This document shows positions 3,862 to 32,000 of a stretch of 32,000 bases of DNA, piece after piece. The notes beneath the pieces are model-generated. The model was not told the origin of the DNA. It did not search any database and was given only the letters and a program-made list of their open reading frames with translations. The translations under genes were made by a program, and so were the position numbers. The DNA is taken from assembly GCF_002945325.1 (NCBI RefSeq), contig NZ_CP026606.1, positions 540,001-572,000 of the forward strand, written 5' to 3'. Every line of letters begins with the position of its first letter. Position 1 is the first letter of the stretch. Source of the DNA: Methanococcus maripaludis. Its GTDB lineage: Archaea > AGJL01 > Methanococci > Methanococcales > Methanococcaceae.

Positions 3862-3870
3862 GGAAAAATT

Positions 3871-8472: not shown

Positions 8473-8503
8473 AAAAGGTCACTATAACAAAAATAAAATT
8501 AAG

Positions 8504-8680: not shown

Positions 8681-8727
8681 TTAAATTCACCTCAAATTAA
8701 AATTAAATAGAAATAATGGTGAAAAAA

Positions 8728-9291: not shown

Positions 9292-9446
9292 ATAACCACC
9301 TCAGTAGCAGATTAAACTTTTAAAACAGTTGAGATAACGAAATATTTTAAAATAATAAAACAGTTTCACTATATATATTCTCGTTTTTGGTATATAAATT
9401 CTACGCACGAGTTTTATAATTCTTAAAATCGGATAAAAATTAAAAA

Positions 9447-10361: not shown

Positions 10362-10445
10362 CTGAAATCTCCCGATATTTTTGAATATATTTTATAATAA
10401 GACATATAAAAAACTAAAGAATCAGATAATTATGTTTATAAATCG

Positions 10446-11246: not shown

Positions 11247-11249
11247 AAG

Positions 11250-12353: not shown

Positions 12354-13290
12354 TTGCTACACCATCTGGATCGATTACTTCTGAAAACTTCATTTTTCCG
12401 TCTGAAAATTTCTGCCTCGAATCATTCATAATATACGATACAATTTTAGAATACGCTTCAGGGTAAAATTCATCTTCTGTTGTTTCAAGAGATGGGTTAT
12501 CATTTACCTCAATTACATAAACGTTTCCAGCATTTTCTTTTAAATCAACACCGTAAAGACCAGTTCCAACTGCATTTGCAGCTTTTAAAGCTGTTGTTAT
12601 AACCTCGTTTGGAACTTCATCGAACATTACACTTTCAACGGTACAGTATACCCTGTGCCCGTCTACGCAGTCATGTATTTTGAAGGTCTCTTTTGGAATC
12701 AAGTATTTGCAGGCATAAATTACTTCGCCATTTAAAATTCCAACTCTCCAGTCAAATCGGGTTTCTACAAATTCTTGTGCAACCAATACATCTGAAAGCC
12801 TCAAAAATCTAGAAGCTACTTTTGAAAATTCTTCTAAAGTGTTTACTTTTTCAACCCGCATTGAAAAGGAAGTCGATGGCTCTTTTAAAATTAAAGGCAG
12901 TCCAATTTCTTCAACAATTCCTTTTAAATTTTCAGGTTTATTCTCAGATTTTCTTAAAAATTTAGTTTTTGGAAGAGTTACGTTATTTTTTATCATGTGC
13001 AGATACATGTTTATCTTGTCGGCACATATTTGAATGGATTTTGAATCATCTATCACTTTTACGCCGTTTAATTCTGCGATTCTGGATGCCACGTAGCTTA
13101 TATTCATTGGGTCAGTTTTGGATCGTATAAAAAGGCCGTCCAGTGTTTTTATTTTGTGTATTTCGTTTGGGAATAAAAAATAAAATTCATGGCCCATTGA
13201 TTCTGCAATATCTCGGAATCTGATTAAAGATTGGAGTTGATTTGAACTACTAAGGGTTTGTCTATCAACAAACACTCCAAATTTTCCCAT
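12340..13290 (-). CDS. RimK / glutathione-synthetase-like ATP-grasp ligase
   Basis: Shows ATP-grasp hallmarks (ADK....L, LILKEP..S.S..V.KV, VAQEF, GVDL......YVIEVNDNP). Confidence 0.75.
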   Translation of the reverse strand: MGKFGVFVDRQTLSSSNQLQSLIRFRDIAESMGHEFYFLFPNEIHKIKTLDGLFIRSKTDPMNISYVASRIAELNGVKVIDDSKSIQICADKINMYLHMIKNNVTLPKTKFLRKSENKPENLKGIVEEIGLPLILKEPSTSFSMRVEKVNTLEEFSKVASRFLRLSDVLVAQEFVETRFDWRVGILNGEVIYACKYLIPKETFKIHDCVDGHRVYCTVESVMFDEVPNEVITTALKAANAVGTGLYGVDLKENAGNVYVIEVNDNPSLETTEDEFYPEAYSKIVSYIMNDSRQKFSDGKMKFSEVIDPDGVANDRN

Positions 13291-13905
13291 TTAATCCACC
13301 AACAAGGTCTTTTCGATCATTGATTTTTCTTCTTTTGAAAGTTTTGATACATTTACCGGGGATATCGACGAAAGGAATATTTTATCGTCAATAATTACAA
13401 ATAACGCATTAATTAGCGGTATTTTAAAAGTTTGATAGATTTTATTTGCTATTTGTTTTATATTTTCATTTTCCGTGCATACCTCCCCAAAAAATATTGA
13501 AAAATTAGCTATTTCAAAATTTTCGGGAACTTTTTGGTAGCATAACGGATATTTTCCACAATTTGTTACGTGTTTTGATATCTTTCTTGATTCTTCTCGA
13601 TTTTTAACGATATAATATGTTGAAGGATCTGAAAAATAATTTACTGAATAAACGATTGAAGGATTTGGAACGTCGCCTGAAGATATTTCCCATTGTAAAA
13701 TAGGAATTCCTGCAAGTTCTGCCCGTGTAAGTGCTACTGGAACAATATATGCATCCAGTACATCGTTACTACTTGGAAAAACCTTATTTTTTCCAGATAT
13801 CTCTTTTGATATCAGTTTGTAATAACTTTCAGTTTTGTAAAAATAATCTTTGCTTATAACACAGTCTATTCCGTCTTTTATTGTTGTATGAGACATTTTA
13901 TTCAA
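13291..13905 (-). CDS. Hypothetical protein, first gene of the ligase operon
   Basis: 204-aa ORF. Its stop directly abuts the ATG of the ATP-grasp gene (TAA 13291-13293, ATG 13288-13290). I recognise no family. The start may be ATG 13896 rather than TTG 13905. Confidence 0.45.
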   Translation of the reverse strand: MNKMSHTTIKDGIDCVISKDYFYKTESYYKLISKEISGKNKVFPSSNDVLDAYIVPVALTRAELAGIPILQWEISSGDVPNPSIVYSVNYFSDPSTYYIVKNREESRKISKHVTNCGKYPLCYQKVPENFEIANFSIFFGEVCTENENIKQIANKIYQTFKIPLINALFVIIDDKIFLSSISPVNVSKLSKEEKSMIEKTLLVD

Positions 13906-14162
13906 AAAAAACCCTTTTTTTGGAATAAACTCACCTTCATTGCTGTTTTAAAGGCCCGACACTCCCCCACAATATAATCGAAGTATCATGATTCCTACAA
14001 CATTAGAATATATAAATTTATGTAATTTGAAAAATCGATTTAAAACAGTTTTTTTGTAAATTAACGGCCTAAAAACGTTAAAATCATGTGAATGTATATT
14101 AACCCTTTTGAAAATAGAATATATTGAGGCCGAAAAAGCCATGCATAAATCGAGGGGGTATT

Positions 14163-14411
14163 ATGGAAGGTGAACATCATATTGAAAAAAGACCCAGTAT
14201 TGTCTCACGAACCCACTCAAGAAAAGATGCGTTAGATTGGGTATCTATTGTTTTGGTAATAATTGGGGGACTTAACTGGGGGCTTGTCGGAGCTTTTAAT
14301 ATAGACCTTATTCAGGTAGTATTTGGAAGTTTTCCGTCAGTTGCAAGAATTCTATATATTCTTGTTGGACTATCTGCAATATACATGATTTACTATGCTT
14401 CAAAAACCTAA
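14163..14411 (+). CDS. DUF378 family small membrane protein
   Basis: IIGGLNWGLVGAFNIDLI...ILYILVGLSAIY is the DUF378 signature. ATG 14163 sits behind GAGGGGG, so the upstream extension from 14124 is unlikely. Confidence 0.75.
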   Translation: MEGEHHIEKRPSIVSRTHSRKDALDWVSIVLVIIGGLNWGLVGAFNIDLIQVVFGSFPSVARILYILVGLSAIYMIYYASKT

Positions 14412-14449
14412 AAAAAATATTAAAATAATTTATTTTTAATTTTTAAGAG

Positions 14450-14944
14450 TTAATCTTCTTTTGAACGGTACATTGTAGTTAACCATTCTTTTACATAATT
14501 TTCAGTTTCTGCCTTGTGGTTTAAAACATCTAAAAATACGGTTCCACCAATAAGTTCATTATCAACAAGCTCTTTTTTCATGTTTTCAAGCGTACTTCCA
14601 ATGGTCTTTCCCGCAGTACAGAATACCGCAACTTTTTTTCCAGCGAATTTGTATTTTGAAAAAAAGGTCTTTAAAGGAGCGGCCATATTTCCAGCCCATA
14701 CGGGAGTTCCAATAAATATTGTGTCGTATTCGTCCAGATTTAAGGATATTTCTTTTATTTCAGGCATTTTTTTAAACATTAAAAATCTGCCAAGTTCTAA
14801 AAACATTGATAATCCTTTTTTTGGAATTTCTGTTACAGTTTCAATTTTTAACAAATCTGCCCCGGTGTTTTCTGAAATAAGATTTGCTACATACTCAGTA
14901 TTTTCAAAAAGTGAGTAGTATATCACAAGTTTTTTTTCATCCAT
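14450..14944 (-). CDS. Flavodoxin-like protein
   Basis: 164 aa. LVIYYS...T and IFIGTPVWAGNMAAP match flavodoxin-fold FMN-binding motifs. Confidence 0.75.
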   Translation of the reverse strand: MDEKKLVIYYSLFENTEYVANLISENTGADLLKIETVTEIPKKGLSMFLELGRFLMFKKMPEIKEISLNLDEYDTIFIGTPVWAGNMAAPLKTFFSKYKFAGKKVAVFCTAGKTIGSTLENMKKELVDNELIGGTVFLDVLNHKAETENYVKEWLTTMYRSKED

Positions 14945-14962
14945 ATATTTCCCCTCGTTTAA

Positions 14963-15736
14963 TTAGTTAATTTTAAATAAATCTGCTGCATTATTATGTG
15001 AAACTGCAGTTATTACCTTTTCATCAAATCCTGCCATTTTTAATTTTAAAACAGTTTTTGGAACTCCAAGTATATCTGATGGTGCCGAAGAACTATCACT
15101 ATTTAATAAAAATCTCTTTTCACAGTACTCCCCAAGTATTTCAACTGCATCATTTGGAGTTAATTTTTGAGGCTGAACAGTAATTCCAAGTTTATAATCA
15201 TTTTCCCAGATTATTGGCACAGTTTCTTTTGTAACGTGTTCTATTATTATTTTTTTCTTAAAATCGATTGGTAAATCCATAGTATCGAGAACTTCAATAA
15301 TATTTTTTGTTACAGCTTCTTTGTTAGTTCTTGGAGTGTGAACTACTGCTGGAAGGTTCATTTCTCTTGCAATGGTTATTTGGTTTTCAAAAACTTCAAT
15401 TTCTTCTTTACTGCATTTTTCAAGCCCGATTTCCCCAACACCAACGACATTTTCTTTTTTCAAATATTCTTTCAAAACATCGTAATCGATTTTTGGAGGA
15501 ATTGCTCTTGGGTGAATTCCAATACATGCTTTCATTTTTAAACCGTTTTTTCGCGCTTTTGCTATTTCATTGCCCAATATTTTGTCGAAATAGTCAAGCG
15601 CAACATCAAACGATCTCATTTTTAAAGGATCGTGTGCATGCGTTATAACGCAGTCAAAAACAGTTGCCATCAATTCAAAATCTTCGTAAGGTCTTGTATC
15701 GGCGTGTACGTGGGAATCAATCATTAAATCACCCAT
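14963..15736 (-). CDS. TatD-related metal-dependent hydrolase (amidohydrolase superfamily)
   Basis: The N-terminal IDSHVH metal-binding motif, the later HP and EIGL motifs, and a VHTP-type motif are present. The start is probably ATG 15724. Confidence 0.7.
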   Translation of the reverse strand: MGDLMIDSHVHADTRPYEDFELMATVFDCVITHAHDPLKMRSFDVALDYFDKILGNEIAKARKNGLKMKACIGIHPRAIPPKIDYDVLKEYLKKENVVGVGEIGLEKCSKEEIEVFENQITIAREMNLPAVVHTPRTNKEAVTKNIIEVLDTMDLPIDFKKKIIIEHVTKETVPIIWENDYKLGITVQPQKLTPNDAVEILGEYCEKRFLLNSDSSSAPSDILGVPKTVLKLKMAGFDEKVITAVSHNNAADLFKIN

Positions 15737-17251: not shown

Positions 17252-20200
17252 TTATTCAACAACTACTGGCCCATTTGCGGTCCATTCGACCATGATTGGT
17301 CCGTCTGGAAGTTCATCCAAAGTTTTAAAGTATTCTAAAGCAGCTTGTGTTCCTAATCTATCTGAACCTGCAATATATACAATAGTGTAGCTTTTAACGA
17401 TTTTTCCAGAATTGTCCTGAATAGTCATAACTTGAATAACCCCTTTGTTTTCTCCAGGGTAGTCGTTTGAAATTGGCATTTCAAACTGATCGTTGTATTC
17501 TCTCGCAAATGGATTTGCTTTTGGTCCGCCAACAATTACTGCATTTCCAGAAATTTTGAATCCTTCTGCATTTTGTATTCTTTCTCTTAATTCTTCAGCA
17601 AATTGCTGATCGATTTCGTTTCCAAAGAGCACTGTTGCACTTGAAACGAAGTTTTTAATAACTTTTGAGTCTATTTCATCTGAAATATCTGAATCGTAAC
17701 TTCTTCCACCGCCACCGGAAGATCTTGTTGTATGGGTTGTTACTGGCGTGTAAGGAATAAGATCAATTCCCCACATTCCAATTAATGGTGCTGTATCGTT
17801 TTCTAAATAGTCGCTCTCATCGTCACATCCATATAGATAATAAGTATCCCCGATTCCATTTGCATCTGCGTCTGTTCCACTGTAATCAGACCAGTAGTTT
17901 CCAAGGAAATTACTGTAACTATTTCCGTTGTATTTATATTCAATTTTAAAAGGACTTAAGAAACTGTTTTTTCCAGTTTCTCCAGGAGTTATGCCCGAAA
18001 TATTTACTGTATCTGTGTAGATAAAGTTGTTTAAGTAAATATTACATCCTGTGACTTCATCGCCAATTATTAGAGGATATTCTGATGAATAGACCGTATT
18101 GTAAGAGATATTTGAATAGTCTTCATCACAATCATCTAAACGAATACCATATTCACTTGCAAGAACAGTGTTGTTGAAGACTGTTGCGTAAGCTCCTTCA
18201 CCCTCCCCATCAAAATCGATTGCATAATCGCTTGAGTTTGTTACAGTGTTGGATGAAATTATGGTATACAATCCGCAGGTGTATATCTCGTCTTCCACGG
18301 TGTTATTGGCGAGTGTGTTGTAATCTCCGTAAACGTAAATATAATCAGTTATTATGTTTGATGAGATTGTGTTATTATTCGAAAGATACTCCCAATCGCC
18401 CTCCATATCAATATAATCTACAGTGTTTGATGAGATTTTATTATTGTCTCCGATTAGTTCAATAGAGTTTACCGTGTTATTGAATATTATTGAATTATTT
18501 AATCCATCGTCATATGCTAAATAAAATCTATTTTCCACAGTATTGGTGGAAATCGTATTATATTCTCCGCTAACTTCAACATCATACGCAGTGTTTGAAG
18601 AAATCGTGTTATACTCCCCGTAAACTCCAACATACTGTGCAGTGTTTGAAGATACATTTGAATTTGAAGCTGTTATGTAAATACTGCTTGAAGTCATTAA
18701 ATTTTTAACAGTTACATTTTCAAGCATGTTTTCAGTATTTGAATAGACTACGTAGTCTCCAGTCTTATTTAACCAGTGATTGTTTCCATCAAAAGTTACA
18801 TTATCAGATTCAATCACTATAAACTTATAAATTGATGAATCGTTTACATAATCGCAGTCCAGTATGTAGTAACCCGGGGTAGTAATTACGACGTATGCAC
18901 TACCGCCTCCAGTATAAGGACTTACGCTTGTAAAGTTTTCTTCAGTAATATGGATCATTCCATCATTGTAATCCACTTTTGGAGCATTTGATGTAAGATC
19001 TACACCCCAAATTCCAGCAAGTGGTTTTGTATCGTTTGTATAGTTTTCTGTGTATGGCGTATCGATTATACCGTCACCATTCGTATCAGCTTCTAAATAT
19101 CCAGCCCAGTAGTTTCCAAGAACGCCCGAGTATGGATTTCCATTGTAATAATAAGTTATATTTTCACTTGAAACAAAATAGTTGTTTGTTCCGTTGTTTA
19201 TTAATCCATCAATGTTGTTTTGGTAGAATCTAACGCCTTGACAGTGTATAATATCTATTGCGTAAGATTGCTCTGATGTGATGTTATTTCTATAAATATT
19301 TGAGTTAGGTCCAGATAACCAGTAAGAAAGTTTAATTGCTTCAGAACCTTCACCAGCTACAGTAATATTGTTATCGTAGAATTCATAATTTCCAGAATCG
19401 CCAGAAAGATAAATACCAAATGCTTGGCTACCTGAGATTGTGAAATTATTACCATATAATTCATTATTGTTAAAGTCTGAATTGGGGTATAACCCGCACG
19501 GCTTATTTCCGGTTAAGGTTATTGTATTGTTAGCCATTATTGTGTTGGTAAAATCGTCGTTACAGAATATACCGTAAGATTCAGTAACACCTTCACCTTT
19601 GAGTGTATTTCCTGAAATCGTGTTTGTTGCAATATTTTCATAAGCATAAATACCGTAAGCATTCTTATTAGAAGAGTTAACTGTAATGTTATTTCCAGTA
19701 ATTGTGCTAGTTAATATGCTGCCATAATCATAAATCCCATAAGTATCTACTGCTTCAGAAATCGCAGATATTACATTTTTTGAGATATTTGTATTTACTA
19801 TGTCATCGTATACGCAAATGCCCATAGAATTAGATGGAGCATCCGTATTAATTATATTTCCAGTAATTGTGCTATCTTGAATATACCCTTTCGCCCAAAG
19901 ACCTACTGAATACTCTCCATTGGTATTGGCAGTAATATTATTTCCAGTAATTGTGCTATCTTGAATATACCCATCTACGTAAAAACTAATAGAATGATAA
20001 GCAGAATTAGCTGTAATGTTATTTTCTGAAATTGTACTATTTATCATATGAATATAAGAATAAATACCATAAGCTTCCGTCAAAGCGTCTGTAGTGCCTG
20101 TAATTGTATTTTCCATAATGGTTGTGTTAATCATACTGTCTAAACTGTAAATACAGTAAACAGTGCCTACAGAAGAGTTAGCTGTAAGCGTATTTCTCAA

Positions 20201-20617
20201 AATCGTGAGTTCATACGAATTTGCAATATCTACTGCAATACTCGTAGAATTTATAACTGAATTTTCCACTTTTGATGAATCTGTGTCGTGGAAATAAACA
20301 CCGTAAGAAAATCCATTCGAAGCTATGTTTTGAATAGTAATGTTTTTGGAATTTTCAACATTTATAAAATAGGTTCCACTTCCAGAACCGTTAATTGAAA
20401 ATCCATTACCCTCTATTGTAATATTTTCTCCGGTGATATTTATCCCGTTTAATCCAGTAATATTTACATTTTCAGTTAAATAATAAGTTCCAGGATAAGA
20501 AATACTCACAGTTCCTGAATCAAAATCGCTTTGCTCTAAATCATAATTAATATCCACTGCATTAACGCCCCCTAGCGCGAAAAGCAGTAGTAAAAATAAT
20601 AAACATTTTTTTATCAA
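17252..20617 (-). CDS. Secreted surface protein: two right-handed beta-helix (PbH1/NosD-like) modules plus a Gly/Ser linker and a conserved C-terminal module
   Basis: Signal peptide MIKKCLLFLLLLFALGGVNA. There are dozens of ~22-aa I.GN.I/ISSNT-type beta-helix coils. Two copies of the NosD-type motif GNYW...D.NGDGI.DT.Y...D..PL are present. The C-terminal 156 aa are homologous to the end of the 24292 gene. Confidence 0.85.
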   Translation of the reverse strand: MIKKCLLFLLLLFALGGVNAVDINYDLEQSDFDSGTVSISYPGTYYLTENVNITGLNGINITGENITIEGNGFSINGSGSGTYFINVENSKNITIQNIASNGFSYGVYFHDTDSSKVENSVINSTSIAVDIANSYELTILRNTLTANSSVGTVYCIYSLDSMINTTIMENTITGTTDALTEAYGIYSYIHMINSTISENNITANSAYHSISFYVDGYIQDSTITGNNITANTNGEYSVGLWAKGYIQDSTITGNIINTDAPSNSMGICVYDDIVNTNISKNVISAISEAVDTYGIYDYGSILTSTITGNNITVNSSNKNAYGIYAYENIATNTISGNTLKGEGVTESYGIFCNDDFTNTIMANNTITLTGNKPCGLYPNSDFNNNELYGNNFTISGSQAFGIYLSGDSGNYEFYDNNITVAGEGSEAIKLSYWLSGPNSNIYRNNITSEQSYAIDIIHCQGVRFYQNNIDGLINNGTNNYFVSSENITYYYNGNPYSGVLGNYWAGYLEADTNGDGIIDTPYTENYTNDTKPLAGIWGVDLTSNAPKVDYNDGMIHITEENFTSVSPYTGGGSAYVVITTPGYYILDCDYVNDSSIYKFIVIESDNVTFDGNNHWLNKTGDYVVYSNTENMLENVTVKNLMTSSSIYITASNSNVSSNTAQYVGVYGEYNTISSNTAYDVEVSGEYNTISTNTVENRFYLAYDDGLNNSIIFNNTVNSIELIGDNNKISSNTVDYIDMEGDWEYLSNNNTISSNIITDYIYVYGDYNTLANNTVEDEIYTCGLYTIISSNTVTNSSDYAIDFDGEGEGAYATVFNNTVLASEYGIRLDDCDEDYSNISYNTVYSSEYPLIIGDEVTGCNIYLNNFIYTDTVNISGITPGETGKNSFLSPFKIEYKYNGNSYSNFLGNYWSDYSGTDADANGIGDTYYLYGCDDESDYLENDTAPLIGMWGIDLIPYTPVTTHTTRSSGGGGRSYDSDISDEIDSKVIKNFVSSATVLFGNEIDQQFAEELRERIQNAEGFKISGNAVIVGGPKANPFAREYNDQFEMPISNDYPGENKGVIQVMTIQDNSGKIVKSYTIVYIAGSDRLGTQAALEYFKTLDELPDGPIMVEWTANGPVVVE

Positions 20618-20762
20618 GTGTTCACCCCGAACATTTTAATACATGCCTAAAAATATGTTAAATATTTGAGAGTTATGATTTTTCTAATTTATATTTTTAA
20701 CGTCAATATTAAGAAAAATTGGTTAATGAAGGATATTTTAAAAAATTTAAAAAAAGAAAGGA

Positions 20763-21461
20763 TTATTCTTCGACAATTTCAAGTCCAGGCATTAAAACAT
20801 TTTTATTTTTCAAATAAAGCCTGTAATCAATGATTTTTGACGTTGTCTCAATTATTTTTTTAGAATATAATGGATCAGCGATTGTATTTAAAAATCCCCT
20901 CAAATCCCCTAGAGCCTTTATTCCATAAATATCGTTTGCACCGCTCGAAATTACAACCGGAGTGTCGTATTTTTTAGCAAGCTTTAGGTTCCTTTGAAAT
21001 GCCCAAAGAATTTTTGATCTATCATAATTTTTGCTTTTTAAAAGATTTCCAAAATTTAATTCAACCGCAACTCGGTTTGTACTGCCGAGTCTTGCAAGGA
21101 TGTGGTCAAGCCCATTATCCATTCTATTTAATTCGGGGGTCGATAAAATATCAACATCGTTCATTTCAAGAACTCTCCTGTTTATTTTAACATCCCCGCC
21201 TTCAACAAGTAAAATATCAACTTTGTTTCTATATTTTTTAACCGCTTTTTCCATTTCATTTTGATTTTTTGTTGAAATTTTTACTCCAGAATACACTTTA
21301 AATTCGCAATTTTCCCCGTATTCAACTGCAGTATTGATTTTTTCTTCAGAATATTCATTATGATTTTGAACTGCAACGCTACCGTCCCATCCAAATCGTT
21401 TTAACGTTTTTATTCCTTCTTCGTCAAAAATATGATTTATATCAAAAATTCCTTCAAGCAT
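20763..21461 (-). CDS. rnp3: Ribonuclease P protein component 3 (Rpp30/p30)
   Basis: 232 aa, consistent with a PHP/TIM-barrel-like p30. The central block GLDHILARL....NRVAVELNF is typical of archaeal Rpp30. Confidence 0.65.
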   Translation of the reverse strand: MLEGIFDINHIFDEEGIKTLKRFGWDGSVAVQNHNEYSEEKINTAVEYGENCEFKVYSGVKISTKNQNEMEKAVKKYRNKVDILLVEGGDVKINRRVLEMNDVDILSTPELNRMDNGLDHILARLGSTNRVAVELNFGNLLKSKNYDRSKILWAFQRNLKLAKKYDTPVVISSGANDIYGIKALGDLRGFLNTIADPLYSKKIIETTSKIIDYRLYLKNKNVLMPGLEIVEE

Positions 21462-21516
21462 TAAATCCCCTGAAATTAAATTAACTGGTAATAAAATAAA
21501 AAAATTAAAAAAGAAC

Positions 21517-21810
21517 TTAGTATCTATCTTGTGGAGTTTTTACTTCGTCGATGATCTTTTTACCTGCTGCAACCTCATCGATACTGTGGATTACTCCGTT
21601 CATGGATTCAATAATTGCTTTTATTGCATCGTAGTCAAGATTGAATCCTTCAATTGTGATTTTAATATTTTCGGTAGATTTGTCTATTTCGTAAACTGTT
21701 ACGTTTACACCATCAATACCATCTACAGAACATAATTTAACTGCTAAATCGGTTAATTTCGGCTCGTGTGTTTTTAAAACATCCAGAACCATTCTCCTTA
21801 ACTTGGTCAA
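21517..21810 (-). CDS. DUF211 family protein
   Basis: 97 aa. LRRMVLDVLKTHEP...L...DGVNVTV.EID..TE..KITIEG matches the archaeal DUF211 pattern. TTG start is behind GAGGAGGA. Confidence 0.6.
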   Translation of the reverse strand: MTKLRRMVLDVLKTHEPKLTDLAVKLCSVDGIDGVNVTVYEIDKSTENIKITIEGFNLDYDAIKAIIESMNGVIHSIDEVAAGKKIIDEVKTPQDRY

Positions 21811-22070
21811 AAATATCCTCCTCTAAATACAACCTGCTATTTTTGAGATATTTTGGGTTTTCATTTCTCTCTAATTTAAAAGAGCTATTATTTATATTTA
21901 TAGTTGTATCCTCATATTCTATATATTATTTGTAGTGCAAATTTATATTACGAATTAATATCTTTTTATTTATAACTCATCAAATATTTTAACCTCGAAA
22001 TTTTTTAAAATTTGAGAATAAATCTTAGAATATCAAATTAGTAATAAAAACCACACTTTAAAGTGATATC

Positions 22071-23171
22071 ATGATTTTACATCCAAGACCTTCCCCGATT
22101 GCGGCCGCAATGTACCAATTAAGGGATATCGGCGTTGATGCGATTATTCTCCACGGGCCAAGTGGATGCTGTTTTAGAACTGCGAGACTTCTTGAAATTG
22201 ATGGAATACGAGTTTTTACCAGTGCAATGGGTGAAAATGATTTTATTTTTGGTGCAATGGATAAATTAAGAGATGTAATAGCGGAAGTTTTGGAATATTT
22301 AAAAAAAGAAACTCCAAAAAGCGAAAAATACAAAATTGGAATCGTTGGAACCTGCGCAAGCATGATCATTGGAGAAGACCTTGAAAGCCTCGTCGATGAC
22401 TTCGAGGATATAATAATTCCCGTAGACATTCACAGCGGACTTGTTGATAACACGGTTGGTGCAATAAGGGCAATGGATGGCGCGCTAAATGCAGGGTTAA
22501 TTGACTATTCCGAATACGAAAGGCAGAAAAAAATGCTTGTTTGTGCAACTGACGTTGAAAAAAAGCGAGGAATGGCAAAAAATAGGTATTTAAAACCAAC
22601 ATATGAAGACGACCTTGAAAAAATTATGAATATTTTAAAAGAAACAGATTCAAAAATAAAAAAGGGCAAAGATGTAAAAATTGCCTGTGTTTTGAATGCG
22701 AAAAAAGAAACTGCGTATTTATTTTCAGACCCACTTTTAGAAATGAATAGACATTTCAAATGCATCAATATTGCAAATCTCGATGAAAATATCGGTTTTG
22801 ATAAAGTAAGGGCTGACGCTAAAAATATTTTAGAAGAATTTAGTAAATGCGGATTTAAAATAGACTACATCACGGGCGGACTTGACGAATACCCGATAAC
22901 TGGTGAAAAAGCATTGGATTACCTAAAAGAAATTAATCCAGATATTGTTGTTGTGTCAGGAGTTCCTCATGCATTATTAATTGAAAATCTAAAAGAAATT
23001 AATCCCGATGTAATAACAGTTGGTATAAGTGATGGCCCAAGGCTTTATCATCCAATAAAAGAAGTTTATAGTTATGGAATAATCGAACTCGATGCCCATG
23101 CAAAGGTTTTGGGTAAGAAAAATATTGTAAAATCAAGATTTGGAGAAATTTTGAGTTTTATGAAATTCTAA
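22071..23171 (+). CDS. cfbD: Nitrogenase-component-1-like protein (NflD / CfbD, methanogenesis marker 13 type; coenzyme F430 biosynthesis)
   Basis: The N-terminus HPRPSPIAAAMY..RD.GVD.IILHGP.GCCFR and the ~366-aa length fit the methanogen-specific NifD/BchN-like family. The call rests on recollection of the family signature, not on a search. Confidence 0.6.
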   Translation: MILHPRPSPIAAAMYQLRDIGVDAIILHGPSGCCFRTARLLEIDGIRVFTSAMGENDFIFGAMDKLRDVIAEVLEYLKKETPKSEKYKIGIVGTCASMIIGEDLESLVDDFEDIIIPVDIHSGLVDNTVGAIRAMDGALNAGLIDYSEYERQKKMLVCATDVEKKRGMAKNRYLKPTYEDDLEKIMNILKETDSKIKKGKDVKIACVLNAKKETAYLFSDPLLEMNRHFKCINIANLDENIGFDKVRADAKNILEEFSKCGFKIDYITGGLDEYPITGEKALDYLKEINPDIVVVSGVPHALLIENLKEINPDVITVGISDGPRLYHPIKEVYSYGIIELDAHAKVLGKKNIVKSRFGEILSFMKF

Positions 23172-23260
23172 AAATTTTCTTTTTTAAATAGTCAAATATT
23201 AATAAAATCATGGAAATATTTTAATTGAATTTAATATTATCATTTTTACGAGGGAAAATA

Positions 23261-24208
23261 ATGCAAAAACCATGGGTTGAAAAATACAGGCCAGAAACAC
23301 TTTCCGAAGTTGTTGGGCACCATGAAATTATCAAAAGACTTACAAATTACGTTGAAAAAAAGTCAATGCCCCACTTGCTCTTTAGTGGATCCCCAGGAGT
23401 TGGAAAAACAACGGCAGCACTCGCTCTTGCAAAAGATTTATATGGCGACACTTGGAGAGAAAATTTTCTCGAATTAAACAGTTCCGATGAAAGAGGAATT
23501 GATGTAATCAGAACCAAAGTAAAAGACTTTGCAAGAACAAAACCTATCGGGGATGCACCGTTTAAAGTCATATTTTTAGATGAAAGTGATGCTTTAACTT
23601 CAGATGCTCAAAACGCGCTTAGAAGAACCATGGAAAAATATTCCGATATCTGCAGGTTTATTTTAAGCTGTAACTACCCAAGTAAAATTATTCCTCCAAT
23701 TCAGTCAAGATGTGCAATCTTTAGATTTTCACCGTTAAAAACTGAAGATTTAGTTGAAAATTTAAAAGATATTTCTGAAAAAGAAAATTTAAACCTTGAA
23801 AAAGGAGGGATCGATGCAATAATCTATGTTTCAGAAGGAGACATGAGAAAAGCAATTAACGTTTTACAAACCGCAGCTGCAGTTTCTGATGAAATAACCG
23901 AAGAAATAGTTTATAAAGTTGCTTCAAAAGCAAGACCTGATGAAATTAAAAAAATGACGCAACTTGCATTAAATGGAAAATTCGTTGAAGCAAGAGAACA
24001 GCTCTACAACTTAATGATCGACTGGGGAATGAGTGGTGAAGACATATTAATTCAGGTATTTAGGGAAGTTCCAAATTTAGATATTTCTGAAAAAGAAAAA
24101 GTACATTTAGTCGAAACAATTGGAGAATGCGATTTTAGAATCGTTGAAGGCTCAAACGAAAGAATACAGTTAAGTGCACTCCTTGCAAAAATGGGAATTT
24201 TAGAATAA
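23261..24208 (+). CDS. rfcS: Replication factor C small subunit
   Basis: PWVEKYRP, Walker A GSPGVGKTT, the DESD(A)LT box, SRC motif and full-length clamp-loader architecture are present. ATG 23261 sits behind GAGGGA, so the 12-aa extension in the ORF track is unlikely. Confidence 0.92.
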   Translation: MQKPWVEKYRPETLSEVVGHHEIIKRLTNYVEKKSMPHLLFSGSPGVGKTTAALALAKDLYGDTWRENFLELNSSDERGIDVIRTKVKDFARTKPIGDAPFKVIFLDESDALTSDAQNALRRTMEKYSDICRFILSCNYPSKIIPPIQSRCAIFRFSPLKTEDLVENLKDISEKENLNLEKGGIDAIIYVSEGDMRKAINVLQTAAAVSDEITEEIVYKVASKARPDEIKKMTQLALNGKFVEAREQLYNLMIDWGMSGEDILIQVFREVPNLDISEKEKVHLVETIGECDFRIVEGSNERIQLSALLAKMGILE

Positions 24209-24291
24209 ACTTTTTTTAAATTTTTTAAAATATTTTTCTAAATTAAATTTTCAAAAAATCAAAAGAAAAAAGAAATGTTATTTTTAAGTAG

Positions 24292-26088
24292 TTATTCAAC
24301 TAAAACTGGCCCATTTGCGGTCCATTTTACAGTTATTGGTTCACTTGGAAGTTCATCTAATGTTTTAAAGTATTCTAATGCAGCTTGTGTTCCGTATCTG
24401 TCACTTCCTGCAATATAGATTACCTGATAAGTTTTGATAAAGTTTCCAACGTGAACTTGTATATTTTGAATTTGGATAACTCCCCTGTTTTCTCCAGGAT
24501 TGTCGTTTGTAATTGCCACTCCAAATTCGGAATCGTATCTGTTAGCAAACCCGTTTGATTCTGGTCCACCAACAATTATCGTATCCCTTGAAAGTTCGTA
24601 ATTTTCTGAATTGTATAGGTTTTCCCTTAATTCTCCTGCGTATTCTCCGTCAATTTCGCTTCCGTATACAATATTGGAATTTGAAACTGCGTTTTTAATT
24701 ACAAATGAAGTAAATCCATCTGAAAGATCTGATGAATACGAACTTCCTCCACCGCCACCTGATGACGACCTAGGAACTGCAATGCTTATGCTTACATTTT
24801 CACTTGAATTTACGTTTCCTGCTAAATCTGTTGCAATGATTGTTATTTCGTAGTTTCCATTTGAAAGAGTTCCTGTATTTCCAGTGTAGTATTCTCCATC
24901 AAATGAAAGTGTTACGTTTCTAACGCTTCCAATTTTAGCAATAACTGATGAAACGTTTGATAATGAATCATTTGCTGTAACGTTTATCGCTGCAGAGCTT
25001 GAAGTATACGTTGTTCCATTTACTGGTTTGTTAACCGTAACTTCTGGATTTACTGTGTCAACAGTAAAGCTTACAGTTTTGTTTACTTTATTTGAAGCAG
25101 TGTCGTTTGAGTACATTGTTACGTTGTAAACACCGTCAGCAAGTTCTGCTGAATTCAGGTAGTTTCCTGTACTGTTATCTAATGATATTTCAGTTGATCC
25201 GTTGAATGCAGTTACTGAATCGATGTAGTCTTCATCTACTGTGAAGTTAAGCACGTCTGATCCATTGTTGAAGTATTCTCCTTCAACTGTGTTAACTGTG
25301 ATTACTGGATCTGTTAAATCTACTCTAAAGGTTACGTTTTCACTTGAATTTACGTTTCCTGCTAAGTCAGTCGCGTATATTTTAACTGTGTTAAGTCCTT
25401 CGTTGAATATTTCACTAGTTAGGAAGTATCCAGTTGATCCATTTAAGGTAATGTTTTCTAAACCGTTTATTTCAGCTACAACTGATTGTAAGTTGATATC
25501 CGTTGCTGTAACGTTTAATATGCTTGAATTGTAGTTGTATGATTTTTCTACGGTGTTAACCGTAACTTCTGGATTTACTGTGTCAACAGTAAAGCTTACA
25601 GTTTTGTTTACTTTATTTGAAGCAGTGTCGTTTGAGTACATTGTTACGTTGTAAACACCGTCAGCAAGTTCTGCTGAATTCAGGTAGTTTCCTGTACTGT
25701 TATCTAATGATATTTCAGTTGATCCGTTGAATGCAGTTACTGAATCGATGTAGTCTTCATCTACTGTGAAGTTAAGCACGTCTGATCCATTGTTGAAGTA
25801 TTCTCCTTCAACTGTGTTAACTGTGATTACTGGATCTGTTAAATCTACTCTAAAGGTTACGTTTTCACTTGAATTTACGTTTCCTGCTAAGTCAGTCGCG
25901 TATATTTTAACTGTGTTAAGTCCTTCGTTGAATATTTCACTAGTTAGGAAGTATCCAGTTGATCCATTTAAGGTAATGTTTTCTAAACCGTTTATTTCAG
26001 CTACAACTGATTGTAAGTTGATATCCGTTGCTGTAACGTTTAATATGCTTGAATTGTAGTTGTATGATTTTTCTACGGTGTTAACCGT
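24292..26088 (-). CDS. Adhesin fragment 3: about five Ig-like domains, Gly/Ser linker and C-terminal module
   Basis: The ORF track calls 24292-25779 from an internal GTG. The same frame stays open upstream through repeat copy B to the tract boundary, with no in-frame ATG, GTG or TTG. The C-terminus matches that of the 17252 gene. Confidence 0.7.
   Translation of the reverse strand, partial: TVNTVEKSYNYNSSILNVTATDINLQSVVAEINGLENITLNGSTGYFLTSEIFNEGLNTVKIYATDLAGNVNSSENVTFRVDLTDPVITVNTVEGEYFNNGSDVLNFTVDEDYIDSVTAFNGSTEISLDNSTGNYLNSAELADGVYNVTMYSNDTASNKVNKTVSFTVDTVNPEVTVNTVEKSYNYNSSILNVTATDINLQSVVAEINGLENITLNGSTGYFLTSEIFNEGLNTVKIYATDLAGNVNSSENVTFRVDLTDPVITVNTVEGEYFNNGSDVLNFTVDEDYIDSVTAFNGSTEISLDNSTGNYLNSAELADGVYNVTMYSNDTASNKVNKTVSFTVDTVNPEVTVNKPVNGTTYTSSSAAINVTANDSLSNVSSVIAKIGSVRNVTLSFDGEYYTGNTGTLSNGNYEITIIATDLAGNVNSSENVSISIAVPRSSSGGGGGSSYSSDLSDGFTSFVIKNAVSNSNIVYGSEIDGEYAGELRENLYNSENYELSRDTIIVGGPESNGFANRYDSEFGVAITNDNPGENRGVIQIQNIQVHVGNFIKTYQVIYIAGSDRYGTQAALEYFKTLDELPSEPITVKWTANGPVLVE
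25030..26088. repeat. Two apparently identical tandem copies of a 525-bp unit (175 codons, two Ig-like domains)
   Basis: Period 525: the landmark TTAACCGT occurs at 25031, 25556 and 26081. The antisense ORFs 25241-25534 and 25766-26059 translate identically. A further 186-bp identical partial copy lies at 28194-28379. Confidence 0.9.
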
Positions 26089-28193
26089 TATTGTTACTGT
26101 TGTTGTTAAAAGTTACAGTTTTTGTTACTTTATTTGTTGTTGTTGTTTGCGTTGTTGTTTTGTTGTTGTTTTGTTGTTTTTGTTGTTGTTTTTGTTTGTT
26201 GTTTGTTGTTTTGTTGTTGTTACTTGTTGTTGTTGTTTATCTACTTGTTCCATTGTTTTATTTGTTGTTACTTTTGTTGTGTGTTGTTATTCTTGTTGTT
26301 TTGTTGTTGTTGTTATTGTTGTTGTTATTTTTGTTTTCTACGATTATTGTTGATGTTATTGTTTGTTTCTATTTCATTATTGTTGTTTATTGTTGTTGTT
26401 GTTGTTATTCCATTGTTGTTGTTGTTATTGTTGTTGTTGTTGTTCCATTATTTGTGTTTATTGTTGTTTTGTTATTGTGTGTTGTTTGTTGTTATTGTTG
26501 TTTTTATTTGTTATTGTTGTTTTTATTGTTACGTTGTTTGTTGTTGTTGTTGTTGTTGTTGTTTTATTATTGTTTGTTGTTGTTTTTTGTTGTTGTTGTT
26601 GTTATTCTTCATTTATTGTTGTTGTTTTATTGTTGATATTGTTTTTTTTTTGTTTTATTTTTGTTGTTATTGTTGTTGTTATTGTTATTGTTGTTGTTTC
26701 ATTTGTTGTTGTTTTGTTCCATTTGTTATGTTGTTTTATTGTTGTTGTTGTTAAACCGTTTTCATTTGTTGTTATTATTTGTTATTGTTATTGTTTTAAC
26801 CGTTTGTTTTGTGTTGTTGATTTTATTGTTTGTTGTTTGTTGTTGTTATTTGTTGTTGTTGTTTTGTTTCTTGTTGTTGTTATTGTTTGTTATTTTTATT
26901 GTTGTTGTTGTTAAAAGCTTTTTTTGTTTACTTTATTTTATTATTATTATTGTTGTTGTTTGAGTTATTATTGTTATTGTTGTTTTTTGTTGTTTGTTTC
27001 TGCTGAATTCATTAGTTTCCTGTTGTTGTTGTTCTTGTTGATATTTCATTGATCCGTTGAATGCAGTTACTGAATCGATGTATTTTGTTACTGTTGATTG
27101 TTATTTGTTGTTGTTGTTATTGTTGTTATTCTCCTTCAACTTGTTATTGTGATTATTGGATTTTTTATTAAAGGTTGTTTTTCACTTGAATTTACGTTTC
27201 CTTGTTGTCATTCGCGTATATTTTAACTTTTAAGTCCTTCGTTGAATATTTTATTATTATTGTTATTATCCAGTTGATCCATTTATTGTTGTTTTTAAAC
27301 CGTTTTTGTTCATTTTTATTGTTGTTGATATCCGTTGTTGTTAACGTTTTATTATTGTTTGTTGTTATTGTTTTTGTTTTTTTGTTGTTAACCGTTATTG
27401 TTGTTGTTGTTTGTTGTTATTTTATTGTTGTTATTTACTTTGTTGTGTTTGTTGTTGTTGTTGTTTGTTATTGTTGTTGTTGTTTTTGTTTTGTTGTTAT
27501 TGTTGTTATTGTTTTGTTATTTGTTGTTTATTTTATTGTTATTGTTGTTGTTGTTGTTTTGTTATTGTTGTTGTTGTTTTTTGTTGTTTGTTGTTGTTGT
27601 TGTTTTTTGTTGTTGTTGTTGTTTTTTTTATTGTTGTTATTATTGTTATTGTTGTTGTTTGTTATTGTTGTTTTGTTGTTATTGAATTGTTTTGTTAATT
27701 GTGTTAATTTATTTGTTGTTGTTATTTTGTTGGATTTATTGTTTTTATTGTTAAAGTTGTGTGTTTTCACTGTTGTTGTTATTGTTTTTTGTTGTTGTTT
27801 GTGTGTTGATTGTTATTTTTAATGTGTTAAGTCCTTTTAATGTTATTATTGTTGTTATTACGTTATTGTTGTTGTTGTTGTTTGATCCATTTTGTTGTTT
27901 TTTTTGTTTTATTTTTGTTTGTGTGTTGTTGAACTGATTGTTATTTGATATCCGTTGTTTTGTTGTTATTATTGTTGTGTTATTGAATTTGTTGTTGTTG
28001 TGATTTTTTTTGTTGAATGTTGTTGTTGTTGTTTACTGTTGTTGTTTTACTGTTGTTGTTTATTATTGTTGTTGTTGTTTTTGTTTTGTTTTATTTGTTG
28101 TTGTTGTTGTTGTTTTGTTGTTTGTTGTTTTTGTTATTGTTGTTTTGATGTTGTTGTTTCTGTTCTTCAGGTAGTTTTGTTGTGTAACTGTGT
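26089..28193. repeat. T/G-dominated low-complexity tract ((TTG)n-like filler) with colinear relic islands of the 525-bp repeat
   Basis: By eye, C is nearly absent and A is sparse outside the islands. GG dinucleotides occur essentially only in the islands. Islands include 27050-27083, which is a 34-bp exact match to 25719-25752, as well as 27181-27202, 27212-27227, 27231-27251, 27267-27285, 27325-27337 and 27387-27395. Confidence 0.9.
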
Positions 28194-29621
28194 TATTTCA
28201 GTTGATCCGTTGAATGCAGTTACTGAATCGATGTAGTCTTCATCTACTGTGAAGTTAAGCACGTCTGATCCATTGTTGAAGTATTCTCCTTCAACTGTGT
28301 TAACTGTGATTACTGGATCTGTTAAATCTACTCTAAAGGTTACGTTTTCACTTGAATTTACGTTTCCTGCTAAGTCAGTTGTAACGATTGTTACGTTGTG
28401 GAATCCTTCAACAAACTCAAAACTTGAATTTCCAAAGAATCCTGAAACGTTTTCTAAAGTAACGTTTATTTCATCATCAATGTTTGCAATAACGGTTACA
28501 GGTGTAAAGTCACTTACTGTAACGTTTAATATGCTTGAATTGTAGTTGTATGGTCCAAATCCGTTGTTAATTACAACGGTAGGGTTTGTTGTGTCAACTG
28601 TTACCGTGATTGGTTCAGTTACGTTTTCGTTTCCTGCCATATCTGTTGCATTTGCTGTTACATTGTAGATTCCATCATTAAGAACCGTTAATGTAACATT
28701 GTAGCTTCCAAATGAACTGTTGATTTTTGAATCAATTAATTCGCCAGTTACTGCATCGATCACTGAAATGTTTGCAATAACTCCAGTCCAAGTGTCGTTT
28801 GCATAAACTGATATTGTTAGATCTTTTGAAGCTGATACATTTGCAGTTCCTATCTCAAATTCGGGGTTTGTAATGTCAACAAATATCATTGTGTTGTTTG
28901 TATTTACGTTTCCTGCTGCATCTGTTGCAGTTATTGTTACCATATTCGGCCCTTCTGAAAACTCGTAAGTGTTGTTTTCGAAGTATCCTGAATCGTTTGT
29001 TAAATTAATTGTATCAATAGGGGGCATAATAGGCAATATAACCGCAGTAACGATTACACTTGTATTATCTATTACTGTAACGTTTAATATGCTTGAATTA
29101 TAGCCATATACTGGTAAAACGTTGTTAAATACAATTTGTGGAGCAGTTGTATCAACTATTACTGTGGTAGTACTTTCTCCAATATTTTCTACATCATCAA
29201 TTGCAGTAACTGTGATGTTGTTTTCCCCCTCTGCAAGTGTTAACCCAAAGAGTAACGTTTCAGAAGTGTTTACTTCACTTGAATTTACAGTAATTCCATT
29301 TACAGTAATGTTACATATTACTGATTCACAGACATTATCGATTATTGTGAAGTTTAACTGAGGATTTGCAATATTAATAATTGAATCATTTACAGGGGTT
29401 TCGATTGAAACTTCTGGAGCAGTCCAATCAACCATGAAATATACTGTTTCAGATGAATTTACATGTCCAAACGAGTCGTTTGCATAAATTTTAACCTCGT
29501 ATTCGCCTTGTGCAAATACATAAGTTGAATTTCCAAAGTATCCATCTGTTTCTGTTAAGGTAATATTTTCTAAAACGCTTCCATTGTCGATTTCAGCAAG
29601 TTGAATTTCCAAAGTATCCAT
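28167..29621 (-). CDS. Adhesin fragment 2: about five to six Ig-like domains
   Basis: After its first 8 residues it repeats the peptide AEIDNGSVLENITLTETDGYFGNST that ends fragment 1. It stops at a TGA 25-27 nt inside the degenerate tract. Confidence 0.7.
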   Translation of the reverse strand: MDTLEIQLAEIDNGSVLENITLTETDGYFGNSTYVFAQGEYEVKIYANDSFGHVNSSETVYFMVDWTAPEVSIETPVNDSIINIANPQLNFTIIDNVCESVICNITVNGITVNSSEVNTSETLLFGLTLAEGENNITVTAIDDVENIGESTTTVIVDTTAPQIVFNNVLPVYGYNSSILNVTVIDNTSVIVTAVILPIMPPIDTINLTNDSGYFENNTYEFSEGPNMVTITATDAAGNVNTNNTMIFVDITNPEFEIGTANVSASKDLTISVYANDTWTGVIANISVIDAVTGELIDSKINSSFGSYNVTLTVLNDGIYNVTANATDMAGNENVTEPITVTVDTTNPTVVINNGFGPYNYNSSILNVTVSDFTPVTVIANIDDEINVTLENVSGFFGNSSFEFVEGFHNVTIVTTDLAGNVNSSENVTFRVDLTDPVITVNTVEGEYFNNGSDVLNFTVDEDYIDSVTAFNGSTEITQLHNKTT

Positions 29622-29675
29622 CTGTTTCTGTTAAGGTAATATTTTCTAAAACGCTTCCATTGTCGATTTCAGCAA
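29522..29675. repeat. Perfect tandem duplication, period 76 bp
   Basis: 29522-29599 is identical to 29598-29675. 76 is not divisible by 3, and the duplication lies exactly at the junction of ORFs 29593-30672 and 28167-29621. Confidence 0.9.
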
Positions 29676-30672
29676 TAACTGTATCTAAGTTATCATCGGT
29701 TACTGTAACGTTTAATATGTTTGTACTGTAGTTATAATCCAATTCGGGATTATTAATTGTAACTGTTGGTGCAATTGTGTCAACTACAACAGTAATTGAA
29801 TCATTTGCATTGTTAAATGCATCATCGATTGCAACTACAGTAATTGTGTGTGTGCCGTCCGTAAGATTTAACGTGTAAAGTATCGCGGTTGCATTGTCTG
29901 CAGTGCTGTCGTTTACCGGCGTTCCATCTACATCTATAAAGTAGTTAATTGTGTCACAGAGATTGTCTGCAATTGTGAAGTTTAACTGAGGATTTGAAGC
30001 AGTTATGTTTGCACCATCAATTGGTGTTGAAATTGTAACTGCCGGTGCTGTTGTATCAACAGTCATCATAAATCCGGATAAATTTGTAGCCCATCCGTGA
30101 GCGTCTGTTGCTTCAATAGTTACTGAATGATCTCCTTCAACCAATTCATTCAATGTTACATTAGTTGGAGTGTTATTAATTACAGAACCATTGACATCTG
30201 CAGATCCGTCAACGTAAATGGTGTAGTTTATATTTGAGGATACGTTGTCAATTAAATTAAGTTCAATTGTTGGAGTGGTATCATTTGTAAAATCTGGAAC
30301 AAATGCATCCACAAATGGTGCAATTGTGTCAACTGTAAAAGTTACAGTTTGATTAGTTAACCCCTCTGAGTCATTTACAAATAAAGTAATGTTGTGAACT
30401 CCATCACCAAGACCCACAGACACGGTTTGTGGCTCAGTTGAAGATTCTGTATCGCAAGTAAGCCCGGGTATTTCACCGGTTACATCTACAAAAAATGTAT
30501 AATTCCACGATCCTGCTACATCAATTGTTGAATTGAATGTAAACGTAATAGGATCCGTAGTAACTAGTTCTCCTTCGCCTGGCGAAATAATATTTGCTGC
30601 CGCATAACTTGTCGAAAGAGAACAGCAAAGTATCGCCAGAACTAGAACCATGAAAACCTTGTTCATTTTCAT
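29593..30672 (-). CDS. Adhesin fragment 1: signal peptide plus about four Ig-like domains
   Basis: MKMNKVFMVLVLAILCCSLSTSYAAA, then repeated VDT.AP-delimited domains. It ends at a stop created by the frameshift inside the 76-bp duplication. Confidence 0.75.
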   Translation of the reverse strand: MKMNKVFMVLVLAILCCSLSTSYAAANIISPGEGELVTTDPITFTFNSTIDVAGSWNYTFFVDVTGEIPGLTCDTESSTEPQTVSVGLGDGVHNITLFVNDSEGLTNQTVTFTVDTIAPFVDAFVPDFTNDTTPTIELNLIDNVSSNINYTIYVDGSADVNGSVINNTPTNVTLNELVEGDHSVTIEATDAHGWATNLSGFMMTVDTTAPAVTISTPIDGANITASNPQLNFTIADNLCDTINYFIDVDGTPVNDSTADNATAILYTLNLTDGTHTITVVAIDDAFNNANDSITVVVDTIAPTVTINNPELDYNYSTNILNVTVTDDNLDTVIAEIDNGSVLENITLTETDGYFGNSTC

Positions 30673-30923
30673 AATTTTTCCCCGATTTTTTTAGTTAATA
30701 ACTTTGTTAGAAATAAAAATACTACTAAGAATATTAGATTTAGTAATATCACCTGAAGGGTTTACTGTTATGTATGTACATTTAAAATATAGGATAATTT
30801 ATTTTTATAAATTACGATTATGATGCATCATAATATTATAATGGGCCATGGAAAATTAATTTAAAAAAAGAAAATTTTTAAAAAAGTTTTATTTTGATAA
30901 AATCAGCATTAAAAAAGAAAATA

Positions 30924-31517
30924 TTATTTTATGTAGTTTACAACGTCTTTTTTTCGTTCAGGCGCCGGTTTTGCTTTTTCTATCAATTTGTAACCGAATG
31001 CAACCCCGTAGAATGGTTCAAAGTTTTCTGGAATATTTAATTTCTTAACATTTTCAGTTGTAAAATAAGGCCTTACAAGTCCAAGCCAGACTGAACCGAT
31101 ATTCATGCTTTCTGCTGCCAAGAGCATGTTCTGAATTGCCGCAGAACAGTCAACAATCGCTGCATGTGCGTTTTTATTTCCAGAAACTACAATTAAAGTT
31201 GGAGCTTCGTAAAGTATATTATATTTCGGATTACTCATTGCATTTATCAGACTTTCAGGCAGATTTTTCATTGAATCCGGATTTTCTGCAAGCGTTTTTT
31301 TAGATACGATATTTATTTCGTCGAGCAATTCCTTGTTCTGAATTACTGTAAAGTGCCAGGGCTGTTCATTTAGTGCAGTTGGCGCATAAATTGCAGCTTC
31401 GAGTATTGCTTCAATTTCACTGTCCTTTAGTTGCTCTTTTTTGAACTTTCTGACACTTCTCCTGTTTTTTATTGTTTCCATAACTTGATTCATGCTTTCA
31501 CCAAATTTAAAATCCAA
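30924..31517 (-). CDS. Nitroreductase-family FMN oxidoreductase
   Basis: RRSVRKF near the N-terminus, P.A.N.QPWHF, and 197-aa length. The start may be ATG 31493 (MNQVMETIK...). Confidence 0.8.
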   Translation of the reverse strand: MDFKFGESMNQVMETIKNRRSVRKFKKEQLKDSEIEAILEAAIYAPTALNEQPWHFTVIQNKELLDEINIVSKKTLAENPDSMKNLPESLINAMSNPKYNILYEAPTLIVVSGNKNAHAAIVDCSAAIQNMLLAAESMNIGSVWLGLVRPYFTTENVKKLNIPENFEPFYGVAFGYKLIEKAKPAPERKKDVVNYIK

Positions 31518-32000
31518 GACTCTTTCCTACAACAAGCACAGTCATATCTGTAAGCATTGGTCTTCTTTTAATTACTGAATAAATCCTGCAAGCTCTTGTT
31601 TCTGCATCGCAGTTTACACAATAGCCTGTTTTTATGCACGGGTTTAAAAATCCCAATCTTTTCATGTTTTTTGGAGCTGCTTCCATTCTGATTCTTTCAA
31701 ATGCAGTTTCAACATCTTTACATAATTTATTTAATCCAACAACAATTATTACTTTTTTCGGACCAAACACAATCGCAGAAACCCGATTTCCAACCCCATC
31801 GATATTTACAAGTTCCCCTGAAGCAGTAATTGCATTTGTACTTGAAATAAATATATCAGACGTTAATTGCTGTCTCATGATATCCATTTTTTCTTCCTGC
31901 GTAAGGCTCGCATCATTGTGGTCCAAAATTACCGCACCTTTTTCCCTTGCTTGCTCTGCAATATTTAATGATTGTACTGTAACTGAACCTCCAAAACCAA
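31507..32000 (-). CDS. LUD-domain (DUF162, LutB/LutC-like) protein, N-terminus outside the window
   Basis: I checked that the frame is open to the window edge (GFGGSVTVQSLNIAEQAREKGAVILDHND...). The motifs TNAIT..GELVNIDG.GNRV and VVGLNK fit the LUD domain. Confidence 0.7.
   Translation of the reverse strand, partial: GFGGSVTVQSLNIAEQAREKGAVILDHNDASLTQEEKMDIMRQQLTSDIFISSTNAITASGELVNIDGVGNRVSAIVFGPKKVIIVVGLNKLCKDVETAFERIRMEAAPKNMKRLGFLNPCIKTGYCVNCDAETRACRIYSVIKRRPMLTDMTVLVVGKSLGF

Follow-up and report, generated by a model that had tools for sequence, protein, structure and literature searches.

When no path in the assembly graph joins two anchors, the Unicycler program uses the consensus of the long reads itself as the bridge, which is more error-prone, and it then polishes the assembly with Bowtie2 and Pilon (Wick et al. 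2017, PMC5481147). Low-complexity junk reads (PMC6966772) and read glitches (PMC5872496) are recognised classes of error in long-read and nanopore data. The genome of Methanococcus maripaludis JJ (CP026606; one replicon, 1,714,918 bp) was made by a Unicycler hybrid assembly of MinION R9.5 1D² reads (Albacore 2.0.1) and MiSeq reads, and annotated with Prokka (PMC5887029). We analysed 32,000 nt of this genome (NZ_CP026606.1, positions 540,001 to 572,000), called hereafter the window, to which all positions refer. Within it, a large surface-protein gene that contains perfect 525-bp tandem repeats is interrupted by a T/G-rich tract (26089–28193). With a probability of about 0.88, this tract is an assembly artefact, namely an uncorrected and poorly basecalled long-read bridge in CP026606. 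Support comes from the source of the sequence and its assembly method, the colinearity of the tract with the neighbouring repeat, the non-mutational character of the filler, the clean repeat present in a near-identical assembly and the intact orthologues.

The T/G-rich tract and the 525-bp repeat

Comparison of the window with itself at a lag of 525 nt gave perfect identity over 25029–26088, which breaks off at 26088. By this run and by translation, the segment holds 2.02 copies of a perfect 525-bp unit on the minus strand, each unit encoding 175 aa and sharing its reading frame with the C-terminal portion of the protein. On the other side of the tract, 28194–28379 is exactly identical over 186 bp to 25711–25896, the adjoining bases being different on both sides. 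This partial copy (minus strand) covers unit offsets 147–332, matches the draft genome GCA_014207315.1, and meets unique sequence at 28380. A preliminary description, made from the letters of the window, had reported the abrupt loss of identity at 26088 and the exact 186-bp copy from 28194, and both were found again by the lag-525 run and by direct comparison. One detail was corrected: position 28194 is unit offset 147 (25711), and not the start of the ‘tcagttg’ motif.

The tract, to which no strand is assigned, is delimited by its composition, its colinear alignment with the repeat, shuffled controls and its TTG periodicity. Its 2105 bp comprise 1357 T, 426 G, 230 A and 92 C (64%, 20%, 11% and 4%), with GG dinucleotides occurring four times, in agreement with the earlier statement that C is nearly absent, A sparse and GG essentially absent. 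GC skew ranges from 0.36 to 0.83 and AT skew from −0.59 to −0.74, whereas the rest of the 32-kb window stays at roughly +/−0.3. Tandem Repeats Finder returned a single, very impure array of period 3 (TTG, 26134–28158), with 64% matches and 12% indels. The distance from one G to the next is exactly 3 in 48% of cases, versus 23% in the intact unit, and the lag-3 autocorrelation of G is 0.34, versus 0.07. Read on the minus strand, the tract translates into sequence rich in N, Q, T and K, with 44–52 stops in each of the three frames.

Inspection of the exact matches between the tract and the unit revealed 24 that are maximal and at least 10 bp long, the longest of them measuring 34 bp (27049–27082). 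In 22 cases the matches follow the order of the unit, with wrap-around, as the tract passes through five units in succession. Both exceptions are 10 bp long; the one at 26409 is ambiguous in register, and the one at 27271 is nested in a larger exact island. A global alignment constrained to start at unit offset 0 and to end at offset 147, which is the offset of 28194, fitted best with 4 units + 147 bp (scores of 1103, 1310 and 1241 for 3, 4 and 5 units, respectively). Dinucleotide shuffles scored 939 +/−16, against 1310 for the tract itself (z = 23), and shuffles of 50-bp blocks scored 1038 +/−35 (z = 7.8). Chance therefore falls far short of explaining either the similarity or the order.

In this alignment the unit borders fall near 26089, 26465, 26881, 27396 and 28034. 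The inferred unit lengths are 376, 416, 515 and 638 bp, followed by 160 bp for the last 147, which amounts to 72–122% of 525 bp. Preservation is uneven: local identity is 0.70–0.85 between 27005 and 27380, versus 0.47–0.64 in the remaining tract, and the best-preserved degenerate unit (26998–27395, no strand assigned) carries 12 exact islands of 10–34 bp in unit order. The claim of the preliminary description that islands of the repeat are kept in order and replace about four units is thus upheld, also against the shuffled controls that it had proposed. Its 34-bp exact block exists, one base away from the 27050–27083 where it had been placed. Of the unit borders that it drew by eye, the number of units (four) stands, and the second and third borders were off by 15–80 bp, no more than the ambiguous filler allows.

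Tabulation of the substitutions by type, likewise proposed at that stage, showed a one-way loss of A and C, yet also a re-phasing of G and frequent indels. In the optimal alignment the proportions of columns kept were 94% for T, 76% for G, 39% for A and 23% for C. A and C were mostly changed to T or deleted (A to T, 154; C to T, 152), and the inserted bases were T (78%) and G (18%). About 380 substitutions and 256 deletions removed an A or a C, whereas only 12 substitutions and 8 insertions created one. Altogether 345 columns were deleted and 203 inserted, for a total of about 850 changes within 2.1 kb. Positions where A or C is retained are weakly correlated between the tract copies. A plain model in which A and C are converted to T was rejected, for G is re-phased to a period of 3 and both G and T are also altered in the stretches between the exact islands, where G to T, T to G, GG to T and GTG to T changes are seen, together with net changes of length. 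Since replacement of A and C by T is unable to shift G residues, the filler is a TTG-periodic pattern overlaid on the repeat, rather than a base-by-base conversion or a mutational spectrum. The true sequence shows through this overlay where it is better preserved.

The surface-protein gene in JJ and in related assemblies

The interrupted gene lies on the minus strand (24292–30672). It starts with an ATG at 30672, begins with a signal peptide and ends at 24292, and it is recognised by this signal peptide, by Big_13/Ig-like domains and by the 175-aa tandem units; in its C-terminal region we found a faint similarity to S_layer_C only. The name ‘giant adhesin’ given to the product earlier is only approximately right: a large secreted protein of ~2150 aa with many Ig-like (Big_13) domains is encoded, and its function as an adhesin is putative. 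In the annotation the gene appears as three fragments of 495 aa (AVB76022.1), 484 aa (AVB76025.1) and 359 aa (AVB76026.1), all of them exact matches and each recorded on a single contig. The adjacent genes are AVB76018.1, AVB76020.1, AVB76021.1 and AVB76027.1. Accessions AVB76023 and AVB76024 are skipped between the C-terminal and the middle fragments, and this gap suggests that two further, spurious coding sequences were called in the tract.

Two lesions break the reading frame. The upstream open reading frame (ORF) enters the tract at 28193 and stops at a TGA (28167–28169) that is 25–27 nt in, exactly as first described, and the stops then noticed in all frames are those counted above. The second lesion is an exact 76-bp tandem duplication on the minus strand (29522–29673, made up of 29522–29597 and 29598–29673) that shifts the frame. 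The match extends into the next 2 bp (AA), a flanking microhomology of 2 bp. In three other M. maripaludis assemblies the 76-bp segment occurs once, and the orthologous proteins read through. The duplication may be a second assembly error, or else a genuine lesion of the sequenced culture or of one laboratory lineage. An origin as an un-trimmed overlap of the de Bruijn graph is disfavoured, because the period of 76 is even and the k values of assemblers are odd.

Both lesions were then repaired in silico. Substitution of the tract by any whole number of units plus 147 bp, with one 76-bp copy removed, produced one ORF with no internal stop, so that restoring the expected sequence restores a gene like its orthologues. 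With four units the repaired ORF is 2148 aa long. Repair of either lesion alone did not restore the frame, and the unrepaired gene has 92 stops in its initial frame. The unit count of the tract suggests that the true array has ~6.7 identical 525-bp units, a figure as reliable as the noisy read behind that count.

The comparison with orthologues that had been proposed gave clean repeat or an N gap in the related assemblies. GCA_014207315.1, an independent Illumina draft with HNP96_ locus tags, matches the window over 8250–15353, 19338–25124 and 28194–32000. Within these segments (about 16.7 kb), one single-nucleotide polymorphism (SNP) and the missing 76-bp duplication are the sole differences. 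At the repeat, this draft has a scaffold gap of 98 N, and its clean repeat extends for 621 bp to the left of the junction at 28380, versus 186 bp in the window. About 850 changes in 2.1 kb, set against one SNP in 16.7 kb, are therefore not ordinary divergence. The SNP itself, at 30969 (T in the window, C in the draft), is synonymous and lies in a nitroreductase gene. When this nitroreductase was used to look for Logan contigs that reach the N-terminus of the surface-protein gene, only GCA_014207315.1 was returned.

GCA_013761225.1, which is 93–98% identical, is likewise interrupted by an N gap within the repeat, and it carries the 76-bp segment once. In GCA_017875815.1, the syntenic gene is an intact single ORF of 1812 aa, of normal composition and free of N gaps, with about 2.7 clean 525-bp units (3737–5160 of the ungapped contig L032, in reverse-complement coordinates). 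This lower number of units reflects either copy-number variation between strains or a short-read array that has collapsed. Two further orthologues, P0141 and P0148, are partial proteins cut off within the repeat, which shows that short-read assemblies break there. No linker of the TTG type was present in the orthologues.

Some observations concern other places where assemblies end. Logan short-read contigs from five runs (L002–L005, L025–L027) have their ends at almost the same place, 24388–24393, in the C-terminal domain of the gene. None of the 31-mers of this region recurs in the window, so that this sequence is probably shared with a paralogue located elsewhere in the genome. A second large surface-protein gene (17252–20617; 1121 aa, with a beta-helix/NosD region and an S_layer_C-like C-terminus) contains a contig break of the Illumina draft, at 19338 of the window. 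A related strain has two genes at this second locus (947 and 419 aa), with ~2 kb in place of 1.25 kb in the window (17723–18972). The second gene may be another weak spot of repeat-related assembly, or it may be a site of real variation.

Origin of the tract

In CP026606, noisy long reads and short reads were combined by a program that is able to insert a read consensus, and the anomaly is found inside a repeat, between flanks of short-read accuracy. As its 525-bp units are identical and in tandem, the array is not resolvable by short reads. In a nanopore/Illumina assembly made with Unicycler in 2018, such an array is just the place where leftover raw long-read sequence would be looked for. 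Rather than following the short-read graph, Unicycler would have joined the two unique flanks by means of long-read sequence. The consensus of this bridge would derive from few or poor MinION 1D² reads of one strand, basecalled with Albacore 2.0.1, in which a large part of the signal came out as TTG-periodic, T/G-rich sequence of low complexity and correct calls were confined to the better stretches. Bowtie2 and Pilon could then not have placed repeat reads on so divergent a stretch, and only its ends would have been corrected, or left correct; polishing limited to the ends would account for the abrupt borders of the tract. The variable unit lengths (72–122%) match what is expected of indel-prone single-molecule reads. 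We infer from these features that the bridge was here of the consensus type, that the reads behind it were poor and that they caused the TTG-like junk. Whatever the step, the tract is very probably not a real feature.

Several points weigh against a long-read bridge. The absence of the tract from JJ DNA is supported indirectly, by assemblies rather than by raw reads, and the identity of GCA_014207315.1 with strain JJ is not proven. The gap in that draft leaves the array open, and a short-read assembler could have entered the clean repeat despite a divergent tract. Ordinary nanopore errors are less biased, and a consensus of many reads should look different; the explanation by a long-read bridge therefore needs very low or poor spanning coverage. 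In the literature searched there was no documentation of TTG-type junk for Albacore or 1D² reads. Finally, the absence of the tract from protein collections speaks for an artefact, but weakly: an exact look-up of 13 ORF variants of the tract in a collection of 15 billion proteins found none of them, so that the two presumed coding sequences were not recovered, and a profile search with a 206-aa ORF of the tract gave no match, yet gene callers may pick other starts and close relatives were seemingly excluded from some of the searches.

Other published data on the locus were also sought. Most literature matches to GTTGTTGTTGTTG turned out to be adapters or primers, reported in work with long-read methods (including PacBio) and irrelevant to a 2.1-kb tract in an Oxford Nanopore (ONT)/Illumina assembly. 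No published report of errors in CP026606 was found in the literature searched, and the supplements of the JJ proteome/transcriptome paper and of the transposon sequencing (Tn-seq) paper held no per-gene table covering the locus.

An artefact of another step, such as local reassembly by Pilon, a misregistered SeqAn consensus or a manual finishing edit, is unlikely, even though it shares with the long-read bridge the evidence that the tract is not biological (the clean draft, the source, the intact orthologue and the repair test). The abrupt borders and the exact 76-bp duplication in the same gene would suit some processing after assembly, and so would a TTG bias that is not documented as a nanopore error mode. 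Pilon, however, reassembles from Illumina k-mers, so that real repeat sequence would be expected. The unit is composed of T (39%), A (25%), G (18%) and C (18%), and a majority consensus of its copies out of register would be expected to be rich in T and A, and not a T/G sequence of period 3. The distorted lengths and the islands resemble instead one noisy molecule.

Less probable still is that the tract is real JJ DNA, in which a strand-asymmetric hypermutation or erasure struck some four internal units, spared short islands and silenced the surface-protein gene. The strong directionality of the changes on one strand (A and C lost, T kept at 94% and G at 76%), the colinear islands and the weak correlation of retained positions between copies would fit such a process, and a decaying gene might well carry a second inactivating lesion. 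But a burst of this size would have stopped abruptly against copies that are 100% identical, beside flanks that differ from the Illumina draft by one SNP. The re-phasing of G to period 3 and the frequent indels of 1–10 bp match no known spectrum of a deaminase, of a diversity-generating retroelement (DGR) or of repeat-induced point mutation (RIP), and the genes of the window include neither a reverse transcriptase nor a deaminase. Cytosine deamination of the RIP or APOBEC type was rejected on the near-equal numbers of A to T and C to T changes (154 and 152) and on the 345 deleted and 203 inserted columns. A DGR target was rejected as well: the loss affects C no less often than A, there are many indels, G is moved, and no reverse transcriptase domain is found among the genes of the window. 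Moreover, the source assembly uses a step known to insert raw long-read sequence. The preliminary description had set biological degeneration beside artefact without choosing between them; on the Unicycler source, the clean draft, the intact orthologues and the TTG overlay, artefact is retained and degeneration has become very unlikely.

Least credible of all is a (TTG)n/(CAA)n microsatellite expansion in a pseudogenised array, or a natural coding linker of low complexity rich in Asn, Gln and Thr, which would agree with the period-3 array of Tandem Repeats Finder and with the N, Q, T and K of the minus-strand translation, but not with the impurity of that array (64% matches, 12% indels), the 44–52 stops in every minus-strand frame, the lack of such a linker in orthologues, or the 22 exact islands, whose order and approximate spacing through four units independent expansions would not keep.

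There is thus no new biological mechanism at the tract. If, against all likelihood, it were present in JJ DNA, it would point to an unknown, strand-specific archaeal process by which T/G-rich sequence takes the place of the internal copies in a tandem repeat. What matters is the state of the reference: the type-strain genome of M. maripaludis, a widely used genetic model, has a corrupted segment of 2.1 kb and a probably false 76-bp duplication in a surface-protein gene. Because of these two lesions, the gene is represented by three truncated proteins (AVB76022.1, AVB76025.1 and AVB76026.1) in GenBank, RefSeq and UniProt. The mapping of reads, Tn-seq, transcriptomics and proteomics onto CP026606 will misbehave at this locus. 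The combination of an extreme T/G content on one strand, colinear exact islands and perfect flanking repeats might serve as an automatic flag for errors in hybrid assemblies.

Comparison with known systems

Fungal RIP, the APOBEC/AID deaminases and DGRs all produce directional, strand-biased and clustered changes confined to a repeat or a target, and in this they resemble the tract. RIP and APOBEC, however, change C to T only, without indels, whereas the tract loses A as well as C, its G residues are re-phased and its indels are frequent. DGRs alter only the adenines of the template, cause no indels and depend on a template repeat as well as on a reverse transcriptase; no such genes lie near the tract.

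A study by Tan et al. in Genome Biology in 2022 reportedly found that nanopore basecallers make repeat-calling errors at telomeres. The likeness is that a neural basecaller swaps the true sequence for a short-period repeat, in a strand-specific manner; the template there is reportedly itself a short tandem repeat, whereas at the tract it is a complex coding sequence.

Nanopore junk reads and glitches (PMC6966772; PMC5872496) share with the tract a low-complexity output of short motifs unrelated to the template, a local loss of continuity and strand specificity. In contrast to these, the junk of the tract is interleaved with correct stretches of the locus and was kept in a finished consensus, and the two papers cited do not describe a TTG motif. 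The Unicycler consensus bridge differs in degree: an error of ~40%, indels included, and a bias to T and G only far exceed a normal nanopore consensus. In other respects the locus looks like such a bridge (PMC5481147), with identical tandem repeats that exceed the short-read insert in length, a hybrid of ONT and Illumina reads, an inaccurate stretch between Illumina-accurate flanks, and the same program.

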